Shown one piece after another: positions 3,876 through 51,396 of a DNA stretch of 64,000 bases. Both the position numbers and the translations under genes were made by a program. The DNA is taken from the NCBI RefSeq assembly GCF_055900595.2, contig NZ_CM148325.1; one strand, written 5' to 3'. Every line of letters starts with the position of its first letter. The first letter of the stretch is position 1. The notes below the pieces were generated by a model, which was not told the origin of the DNA, did not search any database, and was given only the letters and a program-made list of their open reading frames with translations.

Positions 3876-4018
3876 GAAACGGGAAAGCCCCTCCCGAGGA
3901 AGGGGCCTTAAATAAGGAAAGGGTCATGATGAAGTGGATCATCATCGTGGTGCTCTTAGTCGTTAGCTACCCAGCTTACTAAGACTACCAGGGCGGGGGA
4001 AACCCCGCTCAACCCTCA
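3876..4018 (-). ncRNA. sib: Sib-family antisense sRNA (antitoxin), copy 1; ends approximate
   Basis: Reverse-strand promoter: -35 TTGACA (4053..4048), 17-bp spacer, -10 TATTTT (4030..4025). Fully antisense to ibs copy 1. Hairpin 3887..3907 plus U-rich tract on the minus strand is the candidate terminator. Confidence 0.6.
3926..3982 (+). CDS. ibs: Ibs-family type I toxin peptide, copy 1 (MMKWIIIVVLLVVSYPAY)
   Basis: 18-codon hydrophobic ORF with ATGATG start and RBS-like aggaaagg upstream, inside the first 328-bp tandem repeat. Matches Ibs toxin family features. Confidence 0.75.
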   Translation: MMKWIIIVVLLVVSYPAY

Positions 4019-4203
4019 CTCCTGAAAATATGCCTTCACGGTCAGAATGTCAATCCGCAGGCTTTGCAGTCTGCGATCCTGCCAGCAAATATTCTTTGCG
4101 AGTCGTTACGCAATAATCACAGATGAAACTATTTTATCTACGCGTTAGCGATAGACTGCATTCAGGGCAAAAGGAGGTAGGCCGACGATTTCAGCGGGAC
4201 GCT

Positions 4204-4346
4204 GAAACGGGAAAGCCCCTCCCGAGGAAGGGGCCTTAAATAAGGAAAGGGTCATGATGAAGCTACTCATCATCGTGGTGCTCTTAGTCATTAGCTTACC
4301 GGCTTACTAAGACTACCAGGGCGGGGGAAACCCCGCTCTACCCTCA
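4204..4346 (-). ncRNA. sib: Sib-family antisense sRNA, copy 2; ends approximate
   Basis: Reverse-strand -35 TTGACA at 4381..4376 with -10 TACTTT at 4358..4353 (17-bp spacer). Antisense to ibs copy 2. Confidence 0.55.
4254..4310 (+). CDS. ibs: Ibs-family type I toxin peptide, copy 2 (MMKLLIIVVLLVISLPAY)
   Basis: Same architecture as copy 1, displaced exactly 328 bp. Confidence 0.75.
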   Translation: MMKLLIIVVLLVISLPAY

Positions 4347-4531
4347 CTCCTGAAAGTATGCTTTCACAATCAGATTGTCAATCCGCAGGCTTTGTAGTCT
4401 GCGATCCTGCCAGCAAATATTCTTTGCGAGACGTTACGCAATAATCACATGTGAAACTATTTTATCTGCAAGTTAGCGATAGACTGCTTGCATGGCGAAA
4501 GGAGGTAGGCCGCCGATTTCAGCGGGACGCT

Positions 4532-4675
4532 GAAACGGGAAAGCCCCTCCCGAGGAAGGGGCCTTAAATAAGGAAAGGGTCATGATGAAGCTACTCATCA
4601 TCGTGGTGCTCTTAGTTATTAGCTGGCCAGCTTACTAAGACTACCAGGGCGGGGGGAAACCCCGCTCTACCCTCA
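4532..4675 (-). ncRNA. sib: Sib-family antisense sRNA, copy 3; ends approximate
   Basis: Reverse-strand -35 TTGACA at 4710..4705; weaker -10 (TAACTT). Antisense to ibs copy 3. Confidence 0.5.
4582..4638 (+). CDS. ibs: Ibs-family type I toxin peptide, copy 3 (MMKLLIIVVLLVISWPAY)
   Basis: Third repeat unit, 328 bp after copy 2; same start context. Confidence 0.75.
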   Translation: MMKLLIIVVLLVISWPAY

Positions 4676-4856
4676 CTCCTGAAGTTATGTTACTCCACCC
4701 TTATTGTCAATCTGTAAGTCCACGTTCTTGCGGGGCGAATAGCAAAACCCTCTGCGCTTATGGGCCGAATTCTGAAAGTTGCTTTGCCTGCTCTTATTTC
4801 ATTGTTGCAGTCGGTATGATACCGGACCTCAATAATTCTCTAAGAAAGGATTTCTT

Positions 4857-5516
4857 ATGAGCGAACAAATCACGTTTGCCACCAGCGATTTTGCCAGTAA
4901 CCCGGAACCACGTTGCCCCTGCATTTTGCTGTTGGATGTTTCTGGTTCGATGAGTGGTAGACCTATTAATGAACTTAACGCCGGATTGGTTGCCTTTCGC
5001 GATGAGCTGCTTGCCGATTCGCTGGCTTTAAAAAGAGTGGAACTCGGTATTGTGACGTTCGGCCCGGTGCATGTGGAACAACCATTTACCAGCGCCGCTA
5101 ATTTTTTCCCGCCCATCCTGTTTGCCCAGGGCGATACACCAATGGGGGCCGCCATTACCAAAGCCCTGGATATGGTTGAGGAGCGCAAACGTGAGTATCG
5201 AGCCAATGGTATTTCCTATTATCGTCCGTGGATTTTCCTGATTACCGATGGCGCACCAACCGATGAGTGGCAGGCTGCTGCCAACAAGGTGTTTCAGGGG
5301 GAAGAAGATAAGAAGTTTGCCTTCTTTTCCATCGGTGTTCAGGGGGCGGATATGAAGACGCTGGCCCAAATCAGCGTTCGTCAGCCTTTGCCTCTTCAAG
5401 GATTACAATTCCGCGAACTGTTTAGCTGGTTATCCAGTTCGCTGCGTTCGGTTTCCCGCTCCACGCCGGGAACGGAAGTTGTACTGGAAGCGCCAAAAGG
5501 CTGGACGTCAGTGTGA
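4857..5516 (+). CDS. yegL: von Willebrand factor A domain protein YegL (219 aa)
   Basis: ATG at 4857 with RBS aaagga. MIDAS-like motif DVSGSM near the N-terminus. Confidence 0.9.
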
Positions 5517-6274
5517 GCTGGCGTCTGGTTTATGCATCAGCCGTTGGAACGTCGCACATCAGCGCTGACTTGTCTTGCCAGGATGCCTGCCAGATGCAGG
5601 TTGCCTGGCTAGAAGACCAGCAGCCATTATTGTCGGTATTTGTCGCTGATGGCGCAGGCAGCGTCTCGCAGGGAGGCGAAGGTGCGAAGCTTGCCGTCAA
5701 TGAAGCGATGGCTTATATATCGCAAAAAGTGCAGGGTGGGGAATTGGAGCTTAATGATGTCCTCGCCACGGATATTGTACTGACTATTCGTCAGCGACTT
5801 TTTGCCGAGGCAGAGGCCAAAGAATTAGCGGTTCGTGATTTTGCCTGCACATTTCTGGGACTGATTTCATCACCTAACGGCACATTGATTATGCAGATTG
5901 GCGATGGTGGCGTGGTGGTAGATTTGGGGCACGGTCTGCAATTGCCGCTCACGCCGATGGTGGGTGAATATGCCAACATGACGCATTTCATTACCGATGA
6001 AGATGCCGTTTCCAGACTGGAAATTTTCACCAGCACTGAGCGTGCGCATAGAGTTGCAGCATTTACGGATGGTATTCAGAGACTGGCGTTAAATATGCTG
6101 GATAATTCTCCGCATGTGCCTTTCTTTACCCCGTTTTTCAATGGACTGGCGTCAGCAACGCAGGAACAACTCGATTTATTACCTGAATTGTTAAAGCAGT
6201 TTTTGTCCAGCCCGGCGGTAAACGAGCGTACGGATGATGATAAAACGTTGGCACTGGCGCTGTGGACAGAATGA
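5513..6274 (+). CDS. yegK: PP2C-family serine/threonine phosphatase YegK/PphC (253 aa)
   Basis: GTG start at 5513 overlapping the yegL stop (GTGA); translation [15 protein letters not shown].... PP2C assignment is from family knowledge. Confidence 0.85.
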
Positions 6275-6338
6275 ACATCGCATGGCGGTTGAAGACAACG
6301 GTTCAACCGCCAGTTTAAGCAATCAATATAATGGCTGG

Positions 6339-6800
6339 CTAGCGAACTAATTTTGCTCTTAGCTCGTCGGCTTCTTCTTTTGGATAGGTGACCAATAAAG
6401 GATCAATGGTATAACCACCGTAAATTTTATCTCCGCGCGTATACATCCAGTCTGAAATATCTTCTTTCTTGATTTTCCACTCCTGGCCATATTCTACGTT
6501 TGTAACAATACCAGGGTCATTGCTTATTATACCAATAAACATGCCGTTAGAATAAGTGACATCCGTGAGCCAGAAATGCTCGGTTTCTCCGCGATCGGTT
6601 ATCGGGGCTTTGACTGCGAAAGTATCAGCATCTTTTTTATTCATAACTTCGATGAATTGATCGGTTTCTTTCCGCGCATGTTGAATGGCGTCAGACATCG
6701 CCTTTTTATCATAACCTCCTGTCACTAACGTATCCGAAATCTCACAATAGCTTGCGGTAGTAAAAAATAGCAGACTCAACATAAGTAATATCTTTTTCAT
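6339..6800 (-). CDS. yegJ: Exported DUF2314-type protein YegJ (153 aa) with N-terminal signal peptide
   Basis: ATG at 6800; N-terminus MKKILLMLSLLFFTTASYC is signal-peptide-like. Lower GC than neighbours. Confidence 0.8.
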   Translation of the reverse strand: MKKILLMLSLLFFTTASYCEISDTLVTGGYDKKAMSDAIQHARKETDQFIEVMNKKDADTFAVKAPITDRGETEHFWLTDVTYSNGMFIGIISNDPGIVTNVEYGQEWKIKKEDISDWMYTRGDKIYGGYTIDPLLVTYPKEEADELRAKLVR

Positions 6801-7000
6801 TTTTTCTCCAGAATCCCTGTGTAGTAAAAGTTAGCAAAAAACCTGTGGAAGTGAATCATTATCAGGTTGGAATTGAATTGTATCCTGATGAAATTGCATT
6901 ATCATTTTTATTCTTGAGTGGGACTCTTCCAATATAGAAATAATTATAATGGACAGTGTTATTATTCATAGAAATATAATATAACTGCCCTTGAAACATT

Positions 7001-8947
7001 ATGAAGACAAATATAAAAGTATTTACATCGACAGGTGAATTGACCACTCTCGGGCGTGAACTGGGCAAAGGCGGCGAAGGTGCGGTTTATGATATCGAGG
7101 AGTTTGTCGATAGCGTTGCCAAGATTTATCACACGCCGCCACCCGCCTTAAAACAGGATAAACTTGCCTTTATGGCTGCGACAGTTGACGCGCAGTTGCT
7201 GAATTATGTCGCCTGGCCGCAGGCAACGCTTCATAGTGGACGAGGTGGGAAGGTTATCGGTTTTATGATGCCGAAGGTTTCAGGTAAAGAACCGATTCAT
7301 ATGATCTATAGCCCGGCACATCGTCGTCAGAGTTACCCTCATTGTGCGTGGGATTTTCTCCTCTATGTTGCGCGCAATATTGCTTCATCTTTTGCTACGG
7401 TTCACGAGCACGGGCACGTCGTGGGTGACGTAAACCAGAACAGCTTTATGGTAGGCCGTGACAGCAAAGTGGTGTTGATTGATAGCGACTCCTTTCAGAT
7501 TAACGCCAATGGAACGCTGCATTTATGCGAAGTGGGCGTGTCGCATTTTACGTCGCCAGAGCTGCAAACCTTGCCATCATTTGTTGGCTTTGAACGCACA
7601 GAAAATCACGATAATTTTGGCCTTGCATTGCTGATTTTTCACGTATTGTTTGGTGGGCGGCATCCTTATTCTGGTGTGCCGCTTATCTCTGATGCGGGTA
7701 ATGCGCTGGAGACGGATATTGCCCATTTTCGTTATGCCTACGCGTCAGACAATCAGAGACGTGGCTTAAAACCGCCGCCACGATCGATTCCGCTATCGAT
7801 GTTACCGGGTGATGTTGCAGCCATGTTTCAGCAGGCGTTCACGGAAAGTGGCGTGGCAACCGGGCGTCCGACGGCAAAAGCGTGGGTTGCGGCACTGGAT
7901 TCTCTACGCCAACAATTAAAGAAATGTACCGTTTCAGCAATGCATGTTTACCCTGGTCATTTAACCGACTGCCCGTGGTGTACACTGGATAATCAAGGCG
8001 TTATCTATTTTATTGATCTTGGCGAAGAGGTGATTACCACCGGCGGTGATTTTGTGCTGGCGAAAGTCTGGGCGATGGTGATGGCGTCAGTAGCACCGCC
8101 AGCACTACAGTTACCATTACCCGATCATTTCCAACCGACTGGCAGGCCGCTTCCTTTAGGCCTGTTACGGCGTGAATACATCATTCTGATTGAGATCGCA
8201 CTGTCAGCGTTATCGCTGTTGCTTTGCGGCCTTCAGGCAGAACCGCGTTATATTATTTTGGTTCCTGTGCTGGCGGCTATCTGGATTATTGGCAGCCTGA
8301 CAAGCAAAGCGTACAAAGCAGAAATCCAGCAACGCCGTGAGGCGTTTAATCGCGCGAAAATGGACTATGACCATTTAGTCAGCCAGATCCAACAGTTGGG
8401 CGGGTTGGAAGGTTTTATCGCCAAACGGACGATGCTCGACAAAATGAAGGACGAAATTCTCGGTTTACCGGAAGAAGAAAAGCGCGCGGTGGCAGCACTT
8501 CACGACACCGCAAGGGAACGGCAGAAGCAGAAGTTTCTGGAGGGATTTTTTATTGATGTTGCCTCTATTCCCGGCGTTGGCCCTGCGCGTAAAGCGGCGT
8601 TACGGTCCTTTGGTATTGAAACGGCGGCAGACGTTACCCGACGGAGCGTTAAGCAAGTTAAAGGTTTTGGTGATCATCTGACCCAGGCGGTTATTGACTG
8701 GAAAGCGAGTTGCGAACGCCGTTTTGTGTTCAGGCCGAATGAAGCGATAATGCCAGCAGACAGACAAGCGGTAATGGCGAAAATGACCGCCAAACGACAT
8801 CGGCTGGAATCGGCGTTGACTGTCGGCGCGACAGAGTTGCAGCGATTCCGCCTTCATGCTCCTGCACGGACCATTCCGTTGATGGAACCATTACGTCAGG
8901 CAGCGGAGAAACTGGCTCAGGCGCAGGCTGATTTAAGCCGCTGCTGA
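7001..8947 (+). CDS. yegI: Atypical Ser/Thr protein kinase-like membrane protein YegI (648 aa)
   Basis: ATG at 7001. Gly-rich loop GKGGEGAVY, catalytic-loop-like HGHVVGDVNQNS, two hydrophobic TM segments (around aa 385-440), C-terminal helix-hairpin-helix motif IPGVGPARKAALRSFG. Confidence 0.9.
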   Translation: MKTNIKVFTSTGELTTLGRELGKGGEGAVYDIEEFVDSVAKIYHTPPPALKQDKLAFMAATVDAQLLNYVAWPQATLHSGRGGKVIGFMMPKVSGKEPIHMIYSPAHRRQSYPHCAWDFLLYVARNIASSFATVHEHGHVVGDVNQNSFMVGRDSKVVLIDSDSFQINANGTLHLCEVGVSHFTSPELQTLPSFVGFERTENHDNFGLALLIFHVLFGGRHPYSGVPLISDAGNALETDIAHFRYAYASDNQRRGLKPPPRSIPLSMLPGDVAAMFQQAFTESGVATGRPTAKAWVAALDSLRQQLKKCTVSAMHVYPGHLTDCPWCTLDNQGVIYFIDLGEEVITTGGDFVLAKVWAMVMASVAPPALQLPLPDHFQPTGRPLPLGLLRREYIILIEIALSALSLLLCGLQAEPRYIILVPVLAAIWIIGSLTSKAYKAEIQQRREAFNRAKMDYDHLVSQIQQLGGLEGFIAKRTMLDKMKDEILGLPEEEKRAVAALHDTARERQKQKFLEGFFIDVASIPGVGPARKAALRSFGIETAADVTRRSVKQVKGFGDHLTQAVIDWKASCERRFVFRPNEAIMPADRQAVMAKMTAKRHRLESALTVGATELQRFRLHAPARTIPLMEPLRQAAEKLAQAQADLSRC

Positions 8948-8959
8948 GCCATTTTTCAA

Positions 8960-10312
8960 TTAACGAAACACCACTTCAGCCCAACGTGCCAGCCCGGCGG
9001 TAACCGACCCAAAGTCATCGCCGCCTGCAATCGGAATGCCCGGCAACTGTTCTGCCAGCGCTTTTTTAATCAGCGGGGATCGGGCGCTACCACCAGTCAG
9101 ATAGATGACATCCGGTTTTTCCTGGGCGTTATCCAGCGCCAGTTGCACCTGTTCCAGAATTCGCGCCAGCGGCTGACTGAGGGCGTTTTCCAGCCCTTGT
9201 TGGCTAATCAGTGTTGCCAGCTCATCGCTGATAAACGGCAGCGATGCGCGGGTTTCCGCTGCGCTGGAAAGGGCGATTTTGCTCTCTTCCGCGCTGCGTA
9301 CCAGCCGATAACTTAAACGCTGACGCCAGACTTTCTGTAACAGGGCCACTTTCGCCGGTTCGCGGGCGTCGCGTACCAGGTCGTTAAGCAGACGACCGTT
9401 AGCACTACTGTAGAAATCACTCTGCGCAGGTACATCGTTGATGGCAACCGCATTCCACCACGGCAGAATCGGCAGGGCGATGCCTTTTTCGGTTTCGCCA
9501 CCCATGCCCAGTAACGGCATCAGGTTTTTAAACGCCAGCGCGATATCCAGATCGTTACCACCAATACGGCAACCACTATGACCCAGCAGGCTGGCTTCAC
9601 GATCGAGACGCGAACGCCACTGTGGCCCCATTAGCAGTAAAGAACAGTCAGTCGTACCACCACCAATATCCACCACCAGCACCCGTTTTTCTTCCTGCAA
9701 GGTGGCTTCGTAATCCAGCCCAGCCGCCACCGGCTCGTACTGGAATACCACATCCTTAAACCCGGCACGCTTCGCTGCGCGCTCCAGAATCCCTTGTGCC
9801 TGGGCGTTTGCTTCATCGCCGCCCAGCCCCTGGAAGTTGATCGGGCGACCAATCACCGCCTGGGTAATCGCTTCTGGCAATTGCGCCTGTGCCTGTTGGC
9901 GAATGTGCAGCATCATTGCGCAGACCAGATCCTCAAACAGCGCTACCTGCTGCGGTTTTAAGCCGCTGGCACCGAGGAACGATTTTGGTGATTTCACAAA
10001 CCACACTTCTTCCGGATCATCAATGTATTGTGCCAGTGAAGAAAGACCGAACTGCACGCTTTTCGCCGTGACATCGATATCTTCTTCGCGGTTATAACGA
10101 ATCGCCCGACGCAGCAGCGCCTGCGTTTCATCGTCGTCTGCCGGAACATCATGATGGCGGTACAGCCATTCGCTTACGGCTTCACGCGTTGGCGCGCAAA
10201 GCATTGAAGGCAGCAGCGTGCTGTCGTTTTCCATTTTTAGCAAATGCGGTTTACCGTCACGCATGACCGCCACTGAACAGTTTGCTGTACCGTAATCAAA
10301 ACCAATAAACAC
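8960..10312 (-). CDS. yegD: Hsp70-like (actin-fold ATPase) protein YegD (450 aa)
   Basis: Track ORF 8960..10375 trimmed to GTG at 10312 (VFIGFDYGTANCSVAV...). DxG ATPase motifs FIGFDYGT and DIGGGTTD. Confidence 0.85.
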   Translation of the reverse strand: MFIGFDYGTANCSVAVMRDGKPHLLKMENDSTLLPSMLCAPTREAVSEWLYRHHDVPADDDETQALLRRAIRYNREEDIDVTAKSVQFGLSSLAQYIDDPEEVWFVKSPKSFLGASGLKPQQVALFEDLVCAMMLHIRQQAQAQLPEAITQAVIGRPINFQGLGGDEANAQAQGILERAAKRAGFKDVVFQYEPVAAGLDYEATLQEEKRVLVVDIGGGTTDCSLLLMGPQWRSRLDREASLLGHSGCRIGGNDLDIALAFKNLMPLLGMGGETEKGIALPILPWWNAVAINDVPAQSDFYSSANGRLLNDLVRDAREPAKVALLQKVWRQRLSYRLVRSAEESKIALSSAAETRASLPFISDELATLISQQGLENALSQPLARILEQVQLALDNAQEKPDVIYLTGGSARSPLIKKALAEQLPGIPIAGGDDFGSVTAGLARWAEVVFR

Positions 10313-10445
10313 GAAATAATCCCCATGCCGGTGAAGAAGGGGCGTGACTTTAGCGAAATGTTGCCGTCGCGACAACCGGAATATGAAAGCAAAGCGCAGC
10401 GTCTGAATAACGTTTATGCTGAAAGCGGATAAACAAGGAGAAGCG

Positions 10446-11294
10446 ATGTATACCCTGAACTGGCAGCCGCCGTATGACTGGTCGTGGATATTGGGATTTC
10501 TCGCCGCCCGCGCGGTGAGCGGCGTGGAAACGGTCGCTGACGATTTTTATGCCCGTAGTCTGGCGGTGGGCGAATATCGCGGCGTGGTGACTGCTATTCC
10601 GGATATAGCCAGCCTTACTCTGCACATAAATTTAAGTGCAGGTTTAGAACCTGTTGCCGCTGAGTGCCTGGCGAAAATGAGCCGCCTGTTTGATCTGCAA
10701 TGTAACCCGCAGATTGTTAATGGGGCGTTGGGCGAGTTAGGCGCAGCGCGGCCCGGATTGCGTTTACCTGGTTGTGTTGATGCTTTTGAGCAGGGCGTGC
10801 GGGCGATTTTAGGCCAACTGGTGAGCGTGGCGATGGCGGCAAAATTGACCGCCAGAGTGGCACAGCTTTATGGCGAACGGCTGGATGATTTTCCGGAGTA
10901 TGTCTGCTTCCCCACGCCTCAGCGGCTGGCTGCAGCCGACCCGCAGGCATTAAAAGCGTTAGGTATGCCGTTGAAACGGGCAGAGGCACTGATTCATCTG
11001 GCAAATGCGGCGCTGGAGGGCACCTTACCAATGACAATACCGGGCGACGTAGAACAAGCGATGAAAACGCTGCAAACTTTTCCGGGTATCGGGCGCTGGA
11101 CGGCGAATTATTTCGCCTTGCGCGGCTGGCAGGCGAAAGATGTTTTTCTACCGGATGATTATCTGATTAAACAGCGATTTCCGGGAATGACACCGGCACA
11201 AATCCGCCGATATGCCGAGCGCTGGAAGCCCTGGCGTTCTTATGCGCTGTTGCATATCTGGTATACGGAAGGCTGGCAACCCGACGAAGCATGA
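10446..11294 (+). CDS. alkA: DNA-3-methyladenine glycosylase II AlkA (282 aa)
   Basis: ATG at 10446 (MYTLNWQPPYDWSW...); track ORF started 10 codons upstream. HhH-GPD glycosylase. Confidence 0.9.
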   Translation: MYTLNWQPPYDWSWILGFLAARAVSGVETVADDFYARSLAVGEYRGVVTAIPDIASLTLHINLSAGLEPVAAECLAKMSRLFDLQCNPQIVNGALGELGAARPGLRLPGCVDAFEQGVRAILGQLVSVAMAAKLTARVAQLYGERLDDFPEYVCFPTPQRLAAADPQALKALGMPLKRAEALIHLANAALEGTLPMTIPGDVEQAMKTLQTFPGIGRWTANYFALRGWQAKDVFLPDDYLIKQRFPGMTPAQIRRYAERWKPWRSYALLHIWYTEGWQPDEA

Positions 11295-11302
11295 CGTTGG
11301 TC

Positions 11303-11390
11303 GCCGGATGCGGTGCGAGCGCCTTATCCGGCCTGGGGAATGAGCGATTTGTAGGCATGATAAGACGCGTTAGCGTCGCATCAGGCAATG
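11303..11390. repeat. REP (palindromic unit) pair between alkA and yegE
   Basis: gccggatgcgg... and gcatgataagacgcg...cgtcgcatcaggc REP consensus-like palindromes. Confidence 0.7.
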
Positions 11391-11403
11391 GGCAAACGCT
11401 CCC

Positions 11404-14400
11404 TCAGTTAATCGCGAAATAACTGCTATTCACCAGCAAATCCAACGGTTGGGCATCGGCAATCACATCGCCATAAATCAGATCGACGCCGATGCCAGAA
11501 AGCGTATCCATCACTAAGGGTAAAACAACTGGCCCGGCGATAGTCTTCACCCCGAGTCGCTGAGCGTGCCCCTGAATAATCGTAATCAGCATCTCATCCA
11601 TCAAATTACCCTGCACGCTGGCGCATAGCTCACCGTCAAGTAGCAGGTAATCTGCCATATTCGCTTTCAGCGTGTTGAAAATTTGCAGATCGCGACCCAC
11701 CTGGCTGAGTACGATCCTGCAACCGGCCAGCCGCAGTTTTTGCACGCTTTCTGCGTGATCGATAACCGCTTCTGCCGGAATAATCAGATGTAATAACCGT
11801 GGTTGTAGAGGGCTATTTTCCAGCTGCTCAAGCAGTTCATTCACCAGCGCGGCGCTACTCAAACCGGCAACAGAAAGGGGGAGGGCGATGCTTAAGCCTT
11901 TACTGGCAATCGCTTTTGCGGTCTGCTGGAAAAATTCATGGAATACCCGGCGGTCAAGAGCATGGTTAAGCGCCGGATCACCGAAGCTACGACGAAATGT
12001 TTGTTCATCAAAAATCTCGCCTTCGCAACCCCAGAGTTTTAGTGATATCAACCACAAATTACGCGCTTCCGGGATCCGTGGCGAAGCGACGCCGTGGGCG
12101 ATCATCATCAACTGATTCTCTTTAATCATCCGCCACTGTTCATCAAGCGACATCGCCGCCCGTTCGCTATGTGCGGCAGCTTGCTGTGGTTCGTAAACCG
12201 TCACCCGGCCCCGTCCACCATTTTTGGAGGCATAACAGGCGATATCAGCCTGCGACATCACTTCAACCGCCTGATGATTGTTGTCATCAATCAAGGTAAT
12301 CCCGGCACTGGCACCTACCCGATGTACACGTCCTTCCCATATAAAGTGATAGTCATTCACGGCGCTGATAATGCGTGTAGCGATAAAACGCGCACTTTCG
12401 ACATTACAATCTGGCAGCAGCAGACCAAATTCATCGCCACCGAGTCGCGCAAGTACGTCGCTGGAGCGCAGCATACTCAGCATCAATGATGCCAGTTCGC
12501 GCAGCAAAGCGTCGCCAGCGGCGTGCCCGGCGCTGTCATTCACCGCTTTAAAGCGATCAAGATCGATAAACACCAGGGCATGTCGCTGATGTGTACTGTT
12601 TACCGTTTGCAGCAGGATGCGTAGTTGCTTCTCAAAACTGGCGCGATTGGCGAGATGCGTCAGTGCATCATGGGAGGCGCTGTAGCTCAGCTGGCGCAGC
12701 ATTTTGCGTGATTCGGTGACGTCCTGAATCACCAGAACCGAGCCTATATTGCTGCCGTCCAGAGTACTTAACGGCGTAATACTGTAATGCACGTCGTAGC
12801 TGCCGCCGCTCCGGCAGTGCAACACCACATCTTGTTCAATCGCAGAACGTGAGGTGTCGGCACTGTAAATGTTCTCCATTAATGGCCCGTTGTCGCCAAA
12901 AGTAATATGCAACACCGTCAGGAGCGGAACACCTAACGCTTCTTCCTGCGTCCAGCCGCTCATCTTCTCCGCCACTGGATTCATAAAGGTAATTTTCATC
13001 GCCATGTCAATACAGACCACGGCTTCGCCGATGGAATCCAGCGTAATGTGCAGGCGCTCTTTTTCCTGAAACAATGCCTCGTTAAGCTGTTTCACTTCGG
13101 TCATATCCATATTAATGCCGAGCAGGCGTTCGACTTCGCCTTCTTTATTCAGTACCCGGTTGGCGAGGGCGCGGATATGGCGAATACCGTCTTTCACGTT
13201 AATGCGAAATTCCAGTTTAAAGGGAGAGCGCGATTGCAATGAATCGCGAATTACTTTTTCGGCGTGCTGGCGATCTTCCGGCAGCACGCACTCGTACCAC
13301 ACCTGCCAGTTCGGTTTGATATGCGGAGGAATTTCATACAGCTCGAACATCCGCTTATCCCAGCTAAAAATATTCGGCTTTAGCTCCCACTCCCAGATGC
13401 CAATCCCGCCCGCTTCGTTAGCCAGCGTGATGCGCTCCATCAGTTGCTGGTTCACCTGTTCGGTGCGTTTTAGCTCGTTAATGTCTTCAATCTGAGCGAT
13501 AAAATAGAGCGGCGTACCATCGGTGTGGCGCACCAGTGAGACGGCAAGCAACGCCCAGACAACATCGCCATTGCGGTTGTAGTAGCGTTTTTCCATTGAA
13601 TAGGTGTTTATTTCACCACTTATCAGCTTTTCAACCTGTTGGAGATCTTTATTGAGATCCTCCGGCCAGGTCAGTTGCTGAAAGGTGAGTCCGCGCAGTT
13701 CTTCCTGACTGTAACCGAGAAACTGGCAGAGCGCTTTGTTGGATTGCAGCCATTGCCCCTCGGTGCCCACTAATGCCATGCCGATGGCGGAATATTCCAT
13801 CGCGTTCCGAAAGCGGGTTTCGCTTTCGGAAATGTGTTTGCGTTCCGCACGAAAGGCATACATCACCATCGTCATGATGTTGGCGGGCAGCAGGATCAGC
13901 AAAAACGGTAGCCACGGCATATGGCTCATCAGGTATGTACGCGGCGTAGCAAGCAGGGAGGGATCAGCGGCCATCATCAGTGACACCATCATCACCGTGG
14001 TAAGGAAGATCAAAAAGGCTTCCATTCGTGGCAGGCGCACGGCGCTCCACATCAACAGCACAATAATGAAAGTAAAAGGCCACGGCAGATACAGCATCGA
14101 AAGCCAACTTAACGTCAGTGTGATGGCTAACGTGAGCAGCGACTCAAAAAGCAACCTTGGGTTGCGATGGCGCAGCAGATAGTGTGGTTTAAATAACAAT
14201 CCCAGCGGCACCAGTGCCAGTGCGCCGATGGATTCTGACAGTACCCATATCAAAAATGCCCTGAGAGGATCGTCTCCGGGCGTCAGCAGGACAACCAGAA
14301 CACCCCCTAACAGAGGTGGAACAATGGCGCTACCGAGTGCCAGACGCAGCCAGTCAGCCAGATTTTGCAATGGGTTATACCACGGCAGCAATTTACGCAG

Positions 14401-14721
14401 CAGCACTGCCCCGACCACGGCTTCAACAATATTGATGGTCGTCCAGGTCATGTTCAGCGAACTGGTGGAAAAAAGCAGGATGGATGCAGCGATATTTCCC
14501 AGCGAGCAGCTCAGTGCAATCCCTGGCCACATGCGTCCGGCATGGCGATAAAACGCCACCATCATGATGGACGTCGGGAACCACAATGGGGCGAGTTGGG
14601 TGCCAAACTGCGAAAGCTCAAGCGAGAAAAGGGTAAAGATAAACGAGACTAAACCTAAACTGACCAGGTGAAGCAGCGGGTGGGGCAGGGCAATTAATAC
14701 ATGCTGTGATTGTTTGCTCAT
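11404..14721 (-). CDS. dgcE: Diguanylate cyclase DgcE/YegE (1105 aa): membrane MASE1-like N-terminus, PAS repeats, GGDEF, degenerate EAL
   Basis: ATG at 14721; GGDEF motif present (LARLGGDEFGLL); long hydrophobic N-terminus. Length matches K-12 YegE. Confidence 0.9.
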   Translation of the reverse strand: MSKQSQHVLIALPHPLLHLVSLGLVSFIFTLFSLELSQFGTQLAPLWFPTSIMMVAFYRHAGRMWPGIALSCSLGNIAASILLFSTSSLNMTWTTINIVEAVVGAVLLRKLLPWYNPLQNLADWLRLALGSAIVPPLLGGVLVVLLTPGDDPLRAFLIWVLSESIGALALVPLGLLFKPHYLLRHRNPRLLFESLLTLAITLTLSWLSMLYLPWPFTFIIVLLMWSAVRLPRMEAFLIFLTTVMMVSLMMAADPSLLATPRTYLMSHMPWLPFLLILLPANIMTMVMYAFRAERKHISESETRFRNAMEYSAIGMALVGTEGQWLQSNKALCQFLGYSQEELRGLTFQQLTWPEDLNKDLQQVEKLISGEINTYSMEKRYYNRNGDVVWALLAVSLVRHTDGTPLYFIAQIEDINELKRTEQVNQQLMERITLANEAGGIGIWEWELKPNIFSWDKRMFELYEIPPHIKPNWQVWYECVLPEDRQHAEKVIRDSLQSRSPFKLEFRINVKDGIRHIRALANRVLNKEGEVERLLGINMDMTEVKQLNEALFQEKERLHITLDSIGEAVVCIDMAMKITFMNPVAEKMSGWTQEEALGVPLLTVLHITFGDNGPLMENIYSADTSRSAIEQDVVLHCRSGGSYDVHYSITPLSTLDGSNIGSVLVIQDVTESRKMLRQLSYSASHDALTHLANRASFEKQLRILLQTVNSTHQRHALVFIDLDRFKAVNDSAGHAAGDALLRELASLMLSMLRSSDVLARLGGDEFGLLLPDCNVESARFIATRIISAVNDYHFIWEGRVHRVGASAGITLIDDNNHQAVEVMSQADIACYASKNGGRGRVTVYEPQQAAAHSERAAMSLDEQWRMIKENQLMMIAHGVASPRIPEARNLWLISLKLWGCEGEIFDEQTFRRSFGDPALNHALDRRVFHEFFQQTAKAIASKGLSIALPLSVAGLSSAALVNELLEQLENSPLQPRLLHLIIPAEAVIDHAESVQKLRLAGCRIVLSQVGRDLQIFNTLKANMADYLLLDGELCASVQGNLMDEMLITIIQGHAQRLGVKTIAGPVVLPLVMDTLSGIGVDLIYGDVIADAQPLDLLVNSSYFAIN

Positions 14722-15038
14722 TACCGCTTTATCCGCAAGACCTGGTCGCCAGTATTCGTTTCTGTGTTTATGCTAGTACAAAAGTTTTACATTTTATATG
14801 CGAATTGCTCATAAAGTGACGTAAAGGCGGATAATTTGCGCAACTGCGTATAACATTTTTTACCTTGTATAAAACTGATCAACGTAATTTGCCACCGGGA
14901 ATTCTTCGTCAACAATTAACTCTGAGCGCGCGGCAACGCTATTCGACTGGTATCAGGCGGATGAAATCCCTATAATTGCCGCGTTTGGCGCTTCGTCGCC
15001 CCCTTCCTAACATCCAGGTTAATCAGGTCGCTAAATAT

Positions 15039-20710: not shown

Positions 20711-20750
20711 TCAGTGTATTGGTAGCTAAAAAGCCAGGGGCGGTAGCGTG
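20711..20750 (+). promoter_or_regulatory. JUMPStart element with ops site (GGCGGTAGCGTG at 20739..20750) in the wza leader
   Basis: Exact ops motif; cagtg...ggtagc...ggcggtagcgtg arrangement typical of RfaH-dependent polysaccharide operons. Confidence 0.8.
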
Positions 20751-35285: not shown

Positions 35286-35366
35286 GAAACCGCGGTGTAA
35301 ATAACGACAAATATAAAATTGGCCGTTTCGGTCAGGGCCAACTATTGCCTGAAAAAGGGTAACGAC

Positions 35367-39694: not shown

Positions 39695-40172
39695 GCCGGG
39701 TGCAGCGTAAAACGCCTTATCCATCCTACGGTTCTGTGCTCGGGACCTGTAGGCCTGATAAGACGCGTCAGCGTCGCATCAGGCACTGAATGCCGGATGC
39801 GGTGTGAACGCCTTATCCGGCCTACGGTTCAGGGCTTGGATCTTGTAGGCCCGATAAGACGCGCCAGCGTCGCATCAGGCACTGAATGCCGGATGCGGCG
39901 TAAAACGCCTTATCCGGCCTACGGTTCTGTGCTCGGGTCTTGTAGGCCTGATAAGACGCGCCAGCGTCGCATCAGGCACTGAATGCCGGATGCGGCGTGA
40001 ACGCCTTATCCATCCTACGGTTCTGTGCTCGGGACCTGTAGGCCTGATAAGACGCGTCAGCGTCGCATCAGGCACTGAATGCCGGATGCGGCGTGAACGC
40101 CTTATCCGGCCTACGGTTCTGTGCTTGGATCTTGTAGGCCTGATAAGAGGCGTCAGCGTCGCATCAGGCAAA
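39695..40172. repeat. Large BIME array: about five tandem units (period about 94-101 bp) of alternating REP palindromes
   Basis: Repeated gcctgataagacgcg...cgtcgcatcaggc and gccggatgcggcg...gccttatccggcctacgg units between wzxC and wcaK. Confidence 0.85.
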
Positions 40173-45458: not shown

Positions 45459-45497
45459 CAGTGCACTGGTAGCTGTAAAGCCTGGGGCGGTAGCGTG
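45459..45497 (+). promoter_or_regulatory. JUMPStart element with ops site (GGCGGTAGCGTG at 45486..45497) for the O-antigen operon
   Basis: Near-identical to the wza-leader JUMPStart at 20711..20750. Confidence 0.8.
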
Positions 45498-45505
45498 TCT
45501 AGGGG

Positions 45506-46796
45506 CAGGGAAAGATTATCAGAAGTACACTTTTTGTACTAAATAATTCGCATTTTATGTTCAAAAATTGAGATATCCCTCATTACCTAAAACTGTTTTT
45601 CACAGCTTATATATGATCAAATACTCCTTGCTTAAATAAGGAGAACAAAATGGAACTTAAAAAATTGATGGAACATATTTCTGTTATTCCCGATTACAGA
45701 CAAGCCTGGAAAGTGGAATATAATTTGTCGGATATTCTACTGTTGACTATTTGTGCCGTCATTTCTGGTGCAGAAGGCTGGGAAGATATAGAGGATTTTG
45801 GGGAAACACATCTCGATTTTTTGAAGCAATATGGTGATTTTGAAAATGGTATTCCTGTTCACGATACCATTGCCAGAGTTGTATCCTGTATCAGTCCTGC
45901 AAAATTTCACGAGTGCTTTATTAACTGGATGCGTGACTGCCATTCTTCAGATGATAAAGACGTCATTGCAATTGATGGAAAAACGCTCCGGCACTCTTAT
46001 GACAAGAGTCGCCGCAGGGGAGCGATTCATGTCATTAGTGCGTTCTCAACAATGCACAGTCTGGTCATCGGACAGATCAGGACGGATGAGAAATCCAATG
46101 AGATTACAGCTATCCCTGAACTTATTAACATGCTGGATATTAAAGGAAAAATCATCACAACTGATGCGATGGGTTGCCAGAAAGATATTGCAGAGAAGAT
46201 ACAAAAACAGGGAGGTGATTATTTATTCGCTGTAAAAGGAAACCAGGGGCGGCTAAATAAAGCCTTTGAGGAAAAATTTCCGCTGAAAGAATTAAATAAT
46301 CCAGAGCATGACAGTTACGCAATGAGTGAAAAGAGTCACGGCAGAGAAGAAATCCGTCTTCATATTGTTTGCGATGTCCCTGATGAACTTATTGATTTCA
46401 CGTTTGAATGGAAAGGACTGAAAAAATTATGTGTGGCAGCCTCCTTTCGGTCAATAATAGCAGAACAAAAGAAAGAGCCAGAAATGACGGTCAGATATTA
46501 TATCAGTTCTGCTGATTTAACCGCAGAGAAGTTCGCCACAGCAATCCGAAACCACTGGCACGTGGAGAATAAGCTGCACTGGCGTCTGGACGTGGTAATG
46601 AATGAAGACGACTGCAAAATAAGAAGAGGAAATGCAGCAGAATTATTTTCAGGGATACGGCACATCGCTATTAATATTTTGACGAATGATAAGGTATTCA
46701 AGGCAGGGTTAAGACGTAAGATGCGAAAAGCAGCCATGGACAGAAACTATCTGGCGTCAGTCCTTGCGGGGAGCGGGCTTTCGTAATCTTGCCCTG
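45506..46796 (+). mobile_element. ISAs1-family insertion sequence (H-repeat-like), about 1.29 kb
   Basis: Imperfect terminal inverted repeats: cagggaaagatta at 45506..45518, and cagggcaagatta as the reverse complement of 46784..46796. Encloses a single intact transposase ORF. Boundaries approximate. Confidence 0.75.
45650..46786 (+). CDS. ISAs1-family transposase (H-repeat-associated protein, 378 aa)
   Basis: ATG at 45650 with RBS aaggag. The sequence [50 protein letters not shown]... is characteristic of H-repeat/YhhI-family DDE transposases. Confidence 0.85.
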
Positions 46797-50361: not shown

Positions 50362-51396
50362 ATGTTTTCATCTAAAACACTGTTAATTACTGGTGGTACT
50401 GGCTCTTTCGGGAATGCTGTATTAAATAGATTTCTTGATACAGATATTGCAGAAATCCGTATATTTAGTCGTGATGAAAAAAAACAAGATGATATGCGGA
50501 AAAAATACAATAATCAAAAATTAAAGTTCTATATTGGTGATGTCAGAGATTACCGTAGTATTTTGAATGCGACTCGCGGTGTTGATTTTATATATCATGC
50601 AGCGGCACTTAAGCAAGTTCCATCATGTGAATTTCATCCTATGGAAGCCGTTAAAACTAATATCCTTGGTACGGAAAATGTTCTTGAAGCAGCTATAGCG
50701 AATGAAGTGAAGAGGGTTGTATGCCTAAGTACTGATAAAGCTGTATACCCGATTAACGCAATGGGTATTTCAAAAGCTATGATGGAAAAGGTCATGGTCG
50801 CGAAATCCCGTAATGTTGATCGCAATAAAACAGTAATATGTGGTACCCGTTATGGGAATGTTATGGCATCTCGCGGTTCAGTTATTCCATTATTTGTTGA
50901 TCTTATTAGAGCGGGCAAGCCACTCACAATAACTGATCCTAATATGACCCGCTTTATGATGACTCTTGAGGATGCGGTAGATTTAGTTCTTTATGCGTTT
51001 GAACATGGTAATAATGGTGATATCTTTGTGCAAAAAGCACCTGCAGCAACTATTGACACATTAGCTATTGCTTTAAAGGAATTACTAAATGTTCCAGACC
51101 ATCCGGTAAATGTCATTGGAACGCGTCATGGCGAGAAATTATATGAAGCTCTACTTAGTCGTGAGGAAATGATCGCTGCTATAGATATGGGTGATTATTA
51201 CCGTGTCCCGCCAGATCTTCGTGACCTTAATTATGGCAAATATGTTGAGCAAGGTGATAGCCGAATATCTGAAATAGAAGATTATAACTCTCATAATACT
51301 CAACGGTTAGATGTTGAAGGCATGAAAGAGCTCTTGCTAAAATTAGCCTTTATTCGAGCAATTCGTGCTGGTGAAAAATATAATCTGGATTCATGA
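50362..51396 (+). CDS. fnlA: UDP-GlcNAc 4,6-dehydratase/5-epimerase FnlA (344 aa)
   Basis: N-terminus MFSSKTLLITGGTGSFG; CapE/WbjB-type SDR. Confidence 0.88.
   Translation: MFSSKTLLITGGTGSFGNAVLNRFLDTDIAEIRIFSRDEKKQDDMRKKYNNQKLKFYIGDVRDYRSILNATRGVDFIYHAAALKQVPSCEFHPMEAVKTNILGTENVLEAAIANEVKRVVCLSTDKAVYPINAMGISKAMMEKVMVAKSRNVDRNKTVICGTRYGNVMASRGSVIPLFVDLIRAGKPLTITDPNMTRFMMTLEDAVDLVLYAFEHGNNGDIFVQKAPAATIDTLAIALKELLNVPDHPVNVIGTRHGEKLYEALLSREEMIAAIDMGDYYRVPPDLRDLNYGKYVEQGDSRISEIEDYNSHNTQRLDVEGMKELLLKLAFIRAIRAGEKYNLDS

Follow-up and report, generated by a model that had tools for sequence, protein, structure and literature searches.

The closest described counterpart of the gene studied here is dgcE (yegE, b2067) of Escherichia coli K-12. 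Pfiffer et al. (2019; PMC6510439) reported that its MASE1 and PAS3 domains activate and its degenerate EAL domain (EALdeg) inhibits, that a GGAAF mutant abolishes its output, and that RdcA binds MASE1, the RdcA T103D mutant being inactive. The same work described the dependence of dgcE on sigma-S and placed PdeR as the functional downstream target of the c-di-GMP that DgcE makes. A second study identified DgcE as the major cyclase, recovered RdcA and RdcB in a screen, and found that DgcE activity depends inversely on membrane potential (PMC13031359). Together, the GGAAF mutant and c-di-GMP levels demonstrate c-di-GMP synthesis by K-12 DgcE genetically (PMC6510439, PMC13031359).

In the window, the whole 64,000-nucleotide stretch that we analysed, the corresponding interval is a single intact open reading frame of 1105 codons followed by a TAA stop. 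A sequence-only reading had assigned a 1105-aa DgcE/YegE protein to positions 11404-14721 and had given no strand; the frame runs from ATG to TAA on the minus strand and is exactly 1105 aa long. Reading the interval on the plus strand was rejected, as the translation is riddled with stops. The name rests on 100% nucleotide identity to the annotated dgcE of E. coli M160133 (WP_032303324.1), 98% amino-acid identity to K-12 b2067, and a score of 2057 bits, far above the cut-off of 1135, for the NCBIfam DgcE equivalog NF007298 (PRK09776; residues 1-1105 on profile positions 1-1111). It rests also on synteny, since the order yegD-alkA / dgcE / udk-dcd-asmA is collinear in the window, M160133 and K-12. 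The frame is not a chance one, because its whole-gene dN/dS against K-12 is 0.058 and 5416 of the 5426 complete E. coli genomes carry dgcE. Antisense open reading frames (88-148 aa) inside it were put down to the shadow of dgcE, which is under strong purifying selection. We conclude that the frame almost certainly encodes DgcE, the major diguanylate cyclase of E. coli, with a catalytically dead EAL domain. The gene, the architecture and the dead EAL domain all match Pfiffer et al. 2019 (PMC6510439) and are already known, as the earlier remark on K-12 had it. DgcE is the top-level trigger of E. coli curli and cellulose matrix production, which bears out its ranking as the main signalling protein of the window.

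Table 1. Positions of dgcE, its domains and motifs, and its flanking regions in the window.
Feature	Position	Strand	Residues and basis
dgcE (yegE) CDS	11404..14721	-	ATG 14719-14721, stop 11404-11406; ORF list and translation
MASE1 membrane domain	13840..14667	-	residues 19-294; Pfam PF05231
PAS1	13480..13815	-	residues 303-414; Pfam PAS, PAS_9, PAS_3, scanned alone
PAS2	13111..13368	-	residues 452-537; Pfam PAS_3, 44 bits, scanned alone
PAS3	12706..13041	-	residues 561-672; Pfam PAS_4, 48 bits, scanned alone
GGDEF diguanylate-cyclase domain	12208..12678	-	residues 682-838; Pfam PF00990, 154 bits, profile 1-160 of 161
I-site R752-S-S-D755 and active-site G761-G-D-E-F765	12427..12468	-	read from translation
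L891-I-S-L-K895, counterpart of E-A-L-x-R	12037..12051	-	alignment to active EAL domains
Degenerate EAL domain (EALdeg)	11419..12114	-	about residues 870-1101; Pfam EAL, 68-73 bits
Divergent dgcE / udk intergenic region, presumed dgcE promoter region	14722..15038	.	sequence read
Convergent alkA / dgcE spacer	11295..11403	.	two REP-like palindromes; sequence read

Scanned whole and in separate pieces, the protein gave the Pfam order MASE1, three PAS domains, GGDEF and degenerate EAL, and an identical precomputed Pfam set is carried by all 120 listed homologues. The MASE1 match, at 124 bits, clears the cut-off of 29.8 and covers positions 2-298 of the 299-position profile. Residues 1-298 have a mean Kyte-Doolittle hydropathy of +0.89, compared with -0.10 in the remainder, and contain about 8-10 hydrophobic segments, multiple hydrophobic 19-mers and 34 Gly+Pro. 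The long hydrophobic N-terminus and membrane anchor noted from the letters were thus recovered as MASE1. A PDB sequence search with this domain found no relative, even at E <= 1. The multi-PAS description was likewise sound: all three PAS domains exceeded the Pfam cut-off when each was scanned alone. In the PDB, PAS2 matched the PAS domain of FixL (E = 1.7e-14) and PAS3 that of RbdA/PA0861 (E = 3e-11).

The cyclase domain is equally clear. The literal GGDEF had been pointed out before, and together with the Pfam score it excludes absence of the domain; its closest PDB match is the GGDEF domain of RbdA/PA0861 (E = 6.5e-45). Across 14 orthologues 63% of its columns are invariant, and both RxxD and GGDEF, separated by the five residues VLARL, are present in all 14. 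So are D720, D722, N728, D737, K833 and R837, and the spacing agrees with that of the PleD positions D327/N335/D344/R359/G368/K442/R446. All cyclase signatures are therefore intact in this allele, competence being read from sequence, and from the RxxD I-site one would expect feedback inhibition by the product.

We next consider the C-terminal domain, in which the sequence-only reading had seen no EAL catalytic motif. The Pfam EAL (PF00563) match covers only positions 41-234 of the 236-position profile, and because it starts at position 41 the motif-carrying part of the profile is unmatched. An AF2 model of the domain reached pLDDT 87 and pTM 0.85. By Foldseek it aligned to RocR, RbdA, FimX and LapD at TM 0.7-0.82, and to RocR, TBD1265, MorA and RbdA at E = 1e-15 to 1e-12 over the same TM range. 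The EAL domain is thus neither missing nor truncated: its TIM-like barrel fold is confidently predicted to be complete, with the active-site residues substituted.

The alignments place L891-I-S-L-K895 where active domains carry E-A-L-x-R, and exclude an intact EAL active site. Of the 11 positions that active EAL domains conserve, ten carry another residue in DgcE, D1029 alone being kept. Compared with RbdA and PdeR, the replacements are E to L891, R to K895, N to P948, E to I980, E to A983, D to S1006 and D to Q1007, with further changes of K to L1027, E to G1063, E to V1066 and Q to Y1083. At the level of motifs, EALxR has become LISLK and DDFG has become SQVG. The metal-binding and general-base residues of EAL are gone in every orthologue examined, and all 12 non-E. 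coli orthologues are degenerate at the catalytic set. The substitutions are common to Citrobacter, Salmonella, Enterobacter, Lelliottia, Kosakonia, Yokenella and Phytobacter, and their presence in these seven other enterobacterial genera shows that the degeneracy is old. By the model and these alignments, the domain keeps the EAL fold and lacks the residues for metal binding and c-di-GMP hydrolysis.

The placement of the EAL-motif counterpart varies with the alignment used. We preferred the L891-K895 register because the profile alignment sets L894-K895-L896 opposite LRL 356-358 of RbdA, because the ungapped PdeR alignment gives the same spacing (R444 to S465, 21 residues, as K895 to P916), and because LISLK sits on predicted strand 889-897 of the AF2 model. 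A MAFFT alignment with PdeH and PdeL put the motif at Q870-L-M, needed a 19-residue insertion, and was rejected. The catalytic glutamate is absent in either register (L891/K895, or Q870/I874 by MAFFT). PdeL and PdeH were too distant to serve as references, the profile of the dead domain aligning over the C-terminal half only and with insignificant scores. The literal tripeptides elsewhere in the protein do not occupy the motif position: EAL at 548 and at 594, together with ELL at 962, falls in PAS linkers and a helix of the EAL-like domain.

Comparison with K-12 b2067 revealed where the protein varies. The two differ at 22 of 1105 residues, 18 of them within residues 846-1105 and one in GGDEF (A819V, a variable column); at the DNA level there are 108 synonymous and 22 non-synonymous changes. 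The same pattern holds among six E. coli alleles, in which the dead EAL domain accounts for 40 of the 48 polymorphic amino-acid sites. Most of these are in the N-terminal half of the domain, the C-terminal half of the barrel being conserved, and the synonymous rate is normal. This concentration of E. coli amino-acid polymorphism is a small addition to the known picture. Among these alleles dN/dS is 0.17-0.41 in the dead EAL domain and 0-0.06 in the other domains; between genera, synonymous sites are expected to be saturated. The domain is still under selection, since its dN/dS is below 1, 35% of its columns do not vary between genera, and polymorphic sites in E. coli avoid columns without variation in the other genera (odds ratio 0.41, p = 0.03). 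Positive selection was rejected on the same dN/dS values and the same avoidance, and from the sequences the polymorphism looks more like relaxed purifying selection. The dead EAL domain is also where the published call of 'positive selection' for dgcE can be placed, and there the signal resembles relaxed constraint of a regulatory domain more than adaptive change. A more speculative view, to which we give little weight, is that the dead EAL domain serves as an evolvable regulatory dial, with lineage-specific tuning of an auto-inhibitory brake or partner interface. If so, natural dgcE alleles, including the rare one here, would set different biofilm-matrix thresholds.

Could the C-terminal domain nevertheless have an enzymatic or a ligand-binding role? 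That DgcE is a bifunctional GGDEF-EAL enzyme with an active C-terminal phosphodiesterase, as RbdA, MorA and PdeR are, would agree with a Pfam EAL score above the gathering score (68 bits vs 31.3), with the full EAL barrel fold, with a PAS3-GGDEF-EAL module nearest to the active RbdA/PA0861 in all three domains, and with the name 'Cyclic di-GMP phosphodiesterase Gmr' (P0051) that some sources give to orthologues. We consider it next to impossible, given that D1029 is the only conserved position left, that metal-binding and general-base residues are missing throughout the orthologues, and that the published work describes a domain without any key residue whose deletion raises output (PMC6510439). 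By analogy, the dead domain might instead be a c-di-GMP receptor like FimX or LapD, feeding back on the cyclase or recruiting a partner. The degenerate EALs of FimX (Xanthomonas, Pseudomonas) and LapD are indeed among its top PDB sequence and fold matches, purifying selection holds it for a non-catalytic role, and in most orthologues the R of EALxR is kept (SLRLW). FimX and LapD, though, retain the motif glutamate and other nucleotide-contacting residues, whereas DgcE has E to L, N to P, DD to SQ and Q to Y, lacks the strand-1 'QP' (AHGV) and, in E. coli, has K rather than R at residue 895. Since c-di-GMP-binding residues were also reported not to be conserved, with inhibition acting through interference with oligomerisation (PMC6510439), we regard a receptor role as very unlikely, and retain the reading of a dead EAL domain in a predicted active cyclase.

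The rarity of this allele raises a different concern, namely that it is a decaying or non-functional copy that may be turning into a pseudogene. Of 5418 records, only 9 reach 99% identity to it, most being 95.7-97% identical, and disrupted dgcE is not rare elsewhere. Of 24 E. coli records taken as a spread sample that included the weakest matches, four have a disrupted copy: ABW_A33 carries an internal stop, O157:H7 H6437 a frameshift and PK8566 an IS4 insertion, while the copy of strain 35 is truncated. These four copies indicate that dgcE is not indispensable. Here, however, the frame is intact across all 1105 codons, every cyclase signature is present, and against K-12 the low whole-gene dN/dS falls to 0-0.05 in MASE1, PAS and GGDEF. 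The divergence is mostly synonymous and similar to that of the neighbouring alkA (dS 0.15), a pattern that suits the history of the lineage, or recombination, better than decay. Decay of this copy is thus highly improbable.

The flanking regions contain few recognisable signals. The alkA / dgcE spacer carries two palindromes, GCCGGATGCGG...CCTTATCCGGCC and GCATGATAAGACGCG...GCGTCGCATCAGGCA, which we call REP-like for their resemblance to the REP consensus. A scan of this spacer for intrinsic terminators found no terminator-like site, and the 8 terminator-like hits within the dgcE frame are at chance level (4.3 +/- 2.2 expected). In the dgcE / udk intergenic region, a sigma-70 consensus scan picked up a single site, which is on the udk strand, and none on that of dgcE. 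An Rfam scan of the whole window placed no RNA family inside or adjoining dgcE.

A mechanism for this allele can be carried over from experiments on the K-12 orthologue, to which it is 98% identical; the partners rdcA/rdcB, pdeR, dgcM and mlrA lie outside the window. The sequence of the allele itself shows an inner-membrane protein, with MASE1 at the N-terminus followed by three PAS domains in the cytoplasm and a GGDEF domain that is cyclase-competent by signature. Two GGDEF domains would have to pair for 2 GTP to be converted to c-di-GMP. Pairing would be favoured when PAS3 dimerises and through RdcA, a dynamin-like GTPase, acting with RdcB; the two would dock on MASE1 after RdcA has hydrolysed GTP. 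The dead EAL domain would act as a built-in brake against productive oligomerisation, and MASE1 would render DgcE a substrate of continuous proteolysis. Activity would be inversely related to membrane potential, and the c-di-GMP made would pass through the PdeR-DgcM-MlrA module to csgD, curli and pEtN-cellulose. The region is an ordinary core gene, correctly identified, and offers nothing in gene, architecture or dead EAL domain beyond published K-12 knowledge.

How does this protein relate to known systems? It shares with K-12 DgcE its length of 1105 aa, its gene neighbourhood and the MASE1-PAS-PAS-PAS-GGDEF-EALdeg order; the amino-acid sequences of MASE1 and PAS3 are identical, the GGDEF and I-site motifs are the same, and the EAL domain is degenerate at the same positions. 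It differs by the 22 substitutions and by 4% nucleotide divergence. RbdA (PA0861, P. aeruginosa; PDB 5xgb/5xgd/5xge, 8pps) has the PAS-GGDEF-EAL order and is the best active-EAL relative of the EAL domain (profile E = 4e-13, TM about 0.8). Because RbdA is the best solved match for PAS3, for GGDEF and within the active-EAL class, the whole C-terminal module of DgcE is homologous to it. The division of labour is opposite: RbdA has an intact EAL site (NLS, EVTE, DDF, KID, AEFVE, QG) and works as a phosphodiesterase, whereas DgcE combines an active GGDEF with a dead EAL. To our knowledge RbdA has no MASE1, and its membrane and sensor parts differ from those of DgcE. The degenerate EALs of FimX and LapD (PDB 4f3h, 4foj, 3hv8, 3pjt) are, like that of DgcE, non-catalytic and regulatory in an EAL fold. 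They bind c-di-GMP and signal to partners (PilZ, LapD output), whereas most nucleotide-contacting positions are substituted in DgcE, whose EAL domain is reported to hinder its own oligomerisation (PMC6510439). PdeR (YciR), the E. coli trigger phosphodiesterase, has the same PAS-GGDEF-EAL order and an EAL domain alignable from helix 2 onward; unlike DgcE, it is soluble, degrades c-di-GMP and retains E440-A-L-V-R444, NIS, ELTE, DDFG, KLD and AEGVE. Finally, the PdeA/YfgF-type proteins and PdeF of E. coli share with DgcE an N-terminal MASE1 linked to proteolytic instability (PMC6510439), and are by description its mirror image, MASE1-GGDEFdeg-EAL, with a degenerate GGDEF and an active EAL.

The 1105-aa protein that the sequence-only reading had placed at 11404-14721 is encoded by a single open reading frame of 1105 codons that fills this interval exactly, from an ATG start to a TAA stop. 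It lies on the minus strand, which that reading had not given; translation of the plus strand of the interval revealed stops throughout. The assignment to DgcE/YegE was borne out: the gene is 100% identical to dgcE as annotated in the E. coli reference genome M160133 and in eight other complete genomes, the equivalog model NF007298 matches over the full protein length (2057 bits; cut-off 1135), and the gene order, yegD, alkA (+), dgcE (-), udk, dcd, asmA (+), is that of K-12 MG1655. Beyond these exact matches, 5402 records carry a dgcE that is 95-99% identical to the window copy; of 5426 complete E. coli genomes, 5416 have the gene.

The M160133 chromosome (1820735-1884734) contains the entire 64-kb window, bar three single-base differences and one 1-nt indel, all distant from dgcE. 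In this otherwise near-identical genome, fnlA has a run of 7 A and is annotated as frameshifted, whereas the window has 8 A in an intact frame, so either the window is from a sister isolate or M160133 carries a homopolymer error. Several other features of the window are listed with the anatomy of DgcE in the table. The genes yegL-pphC-yegI-yegD form a eukaryote-like module of kinase and phosphatase that is poorly understood. A consensus scan of the alkA/dgcE spacer found no canonical intrinsic terminator. K-12 presumably has two copies, sibA/ibsA and sibB/ibsB, between mdtA and yegL, and the window strain would then have one extra Sib/Ibs repeat unit. The ISAs1-family gene lies between JUMPstart and wzx, and therefore inside the leader normally subject to RfaH-dependent antitermination.

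Features of the window (nucleotides) and of DgcE (residues); PAS domains exceed the Pfam cut-off when scanned separately
Feature	Position	Details
Three tandem Sib antisense RNAs	window 3911-4710	between mdtA and yegL; 136-140 bits each to Rfam SIB_RNA; opposite lie three ORFs annotated as Ibs type I toxins
yegL (vWA), pphC (PP2C phosphatase), yegI (Ser/Thr kinase-like), yegD (Hsp70-like)	window 4857-10312	adjoin alkA, dgcE
Convergent alkA/dgcE spacer	window 11295-11403	two REP-like palindromes, BIME-type element
JUMPstart	window 20712-20750	upstream of wza; ordinary for colanic-acid locus
algC RNA motif	window 35313-35362	upstream of cpsG; ordinary for colanic-acid locus
Four tandem naRNA4/REP325-type repeats	window 39752-40111	wzxC-wcaK gap, colanic-acid cluster; Rfam RF02564, 72-80 bits; ordinary for locus
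O-antigen-operon JUMPstart	window 45459-45497	
ISAs1-family transposase gene	window 45650-46786	between JUMPstart and first operon gene
O15-family wzx	window from 46865	first O-antigen operon gene
fnlA	window 50362-51396	344-codon ORF; run of 8 A at 50476-50483
MASE1	DgcE 19-294	Pfam, 124 bits
PAS1	DgcE 303-414	
PAS2	DgcE 452-537	
PAS3	DgcE 561-672	
GGDEF	DgcE 682-838	Pfam, 154 bits
EAL-like	DgcE 900-1088	Pfam, 68 bits; only profile positions 41-234 of 236
E-A-L-x-R of active EAL	DgcE 891-895	L891-I-S-L-K895
N (NxS)	DgcE 948	P948
ExxE	DgcE 980, 983	I980/A983
DD(FG)	DgcE 1006, 1007	S1006/Q1007
K(xD)	DgcE 1027	L1027; D1029 retained
E(GV)E	DgcE 1063, 1066	G1063/V1066
Q(G)	DgcE 1083	Y1083

DgcE is a membrane-anchored protein with three PAS domains, a cyclase domain predicted to be competent and a non-catalytic EAL fold. 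Pfam annotation recovered all of these domains, including the long hydrophobic N-terminus and the multiple PAS domains claimed from the sequence. Mean hydropathy is +0.89 in residues 1-298 and -0.10 in the remainder; the eight to ten hydrophobic segments and 34 Gly/Pro of this region match the published description of MASE1 as a ten-segment membrane domain rich in glycine and proline (PMC6510439). Solved structures searched by sequence with MASE1 yielded no relative. The GGDEF motif, also noted earlier, occupies residues 761-765, with an I-site RxxD (R752-S-S-D755) five residues upstream. D720, D722, N728, D737, K833 and R837 are present, invariant across 14 orthologues, and spaced like the PleD residues for catalysis and GTP binding. 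Solved cyclases and GGDEF-EAL proteins can be aligned to the domain (top match RbdA/PA0861, E = 6.5e-45). Judged by these residues, the cyclase half is intact and should be competent, and its RxxD site may allow product inhibition.

Could the C-terminal domain be an active phosphodiesterase? A residue-by-residue map against the active EAL domains of RbdA and PdeR excludes this: the catalytic positions are replaced (table), and the EAL motif is missing, as the sequence-only reading had proposed. An alternative register from MAFFT with PdeH and PdeL, placing the motif at Q870-L-M with a 19-residue insertion, was rejected; the glutamate is absent in both registers. The literal tripeptides EAL (548, 594) and ELL (962) are chance occurrences. 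The substitutions are shared by the orthologues of Citrobacter, Salmonella, Enterobacter, Lelliottia, Kosakonia, Yokenella and Phytobacter (74-81% overall identity), so catalysis was lost before these genera diverged. When residues 846-1105 were modeled with AlphaFold2 from 23 orthologous sequences, mean pLDDT was 87 and pTM 0.85, and the top Foldseek PDB matches of the model were all EAL domains (FimX, RbdA, TBD1265, RocR, LapD, MorA, MucR, BifA; E 1e-15 to 1e-12, TM-scores 0.7-0.82 across ~250 columns). The domain is therefore complete rather than truncated, and the EAL half is predicted to be folded but dead. FimX and LapD among the best matches suggest a c-di-GMP receptor, but most contact residues are replaced, and this role is judged very improbable.

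The EAL-like domain is also where dgcE varies most. Relative to K-12, 18 of 22 amino-acid differences fall within residues 846-1105 (Fisher p = 9e-9), where dN/dS is 0.20 and dS (0.155) is close to that of the gene remainder. Among six E. coli alleles (window, K-12, ABW_A33, Ecol_656, FDAARGOS_1293, RMDEC465), 40 of 48 polymorphic amino-acid sites lie there (p = 4e-19), concentrated in the domain's first half; codons with synonymous-only polymorphism are distributed evenly. Pairwise dN/dS, a simple estimate from Nei-Gojobori counts on only six alleles, is 0.17-0.41 in this region vs 0-0.06 elsewhere. Cross-genus identity is 64.5% for the domain vs 76-84% for the others, and polymorphic sites under-sample columns invariant in other genera (9/40 vs 100/260; odds ratio 0.41, p = 0.03). 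The intact reading frame, together with dN/dS values of 0-0.05 across MASE1, PAS and GGDEF, contradicts the idea of an allele in decay. We read the pattern as relaxed yet persistent purifying selection on a regulatory scaffold.

In one published list, dgcE counts as 'positively selected' in E. coli, with sites not mapped to domains; pphC and alkA, which with dgcE span window 5513-14721, are listed too (PMC9110714). The dgcE entry probably stems from relaxed selection in the EAL-like domain. The recombination-prone colanic-acid and O-antigen loci border the region, however, a caveat on the dN/dS reading; dS from K-12 is high for alkA and dgcE (0.15, vs 0.08-0.11 for udk, dcd and asmA), and recombination might inflate the calls for all three genes. 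Of 24 records drawn at even steps through the similarity ranking, a sample with the weakest matches and possible sequencing errors in it, four have a disrupted dgcE (ABW_A33, O157:H7 H6437 and two further ranked matches, H26 and H39): one copy has an internal stop at codon 124, one is shifted in frame by 1 nt near codon 178, one is interrupted by IS4 and one is reduced to the MASE1 part. This small sample suggests that the master cyclase is lost recurrently in natural E. coli.

Overall, the earlier observation was confirmed and its interpretation supported, including the remark that the protein is already described in K-12: gene, domain architecture and degenerate EAL domain are all previously published (PMC6510439). 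Experiments on the K-12 protein, 98% identical to the window allele, supply the mechanism. Its expression depends on sigma-S, its output needs the GGDEF motif, MASE1 and the dimerizing PAS3 activate it, and the degenerate EAL domain inhibits, opposing oligomer formation (PMC6510439). RdcB and the dynamin-like GTPase RdcA bind MASE1, activating DgcE only if RdcA can hydrolyze GTP; MASE1 also causes continuous proteolytic turnover, and output runs through PdeR-DgcM-MlrA to csgD, curli and pEtN-cellulose (PMC6510439). By analogy, the window protein would work as its K-12 counterpart does, with GGDEF output, activation through MASE1 and PAS3, and inhibition by the degenerate EAL domain.
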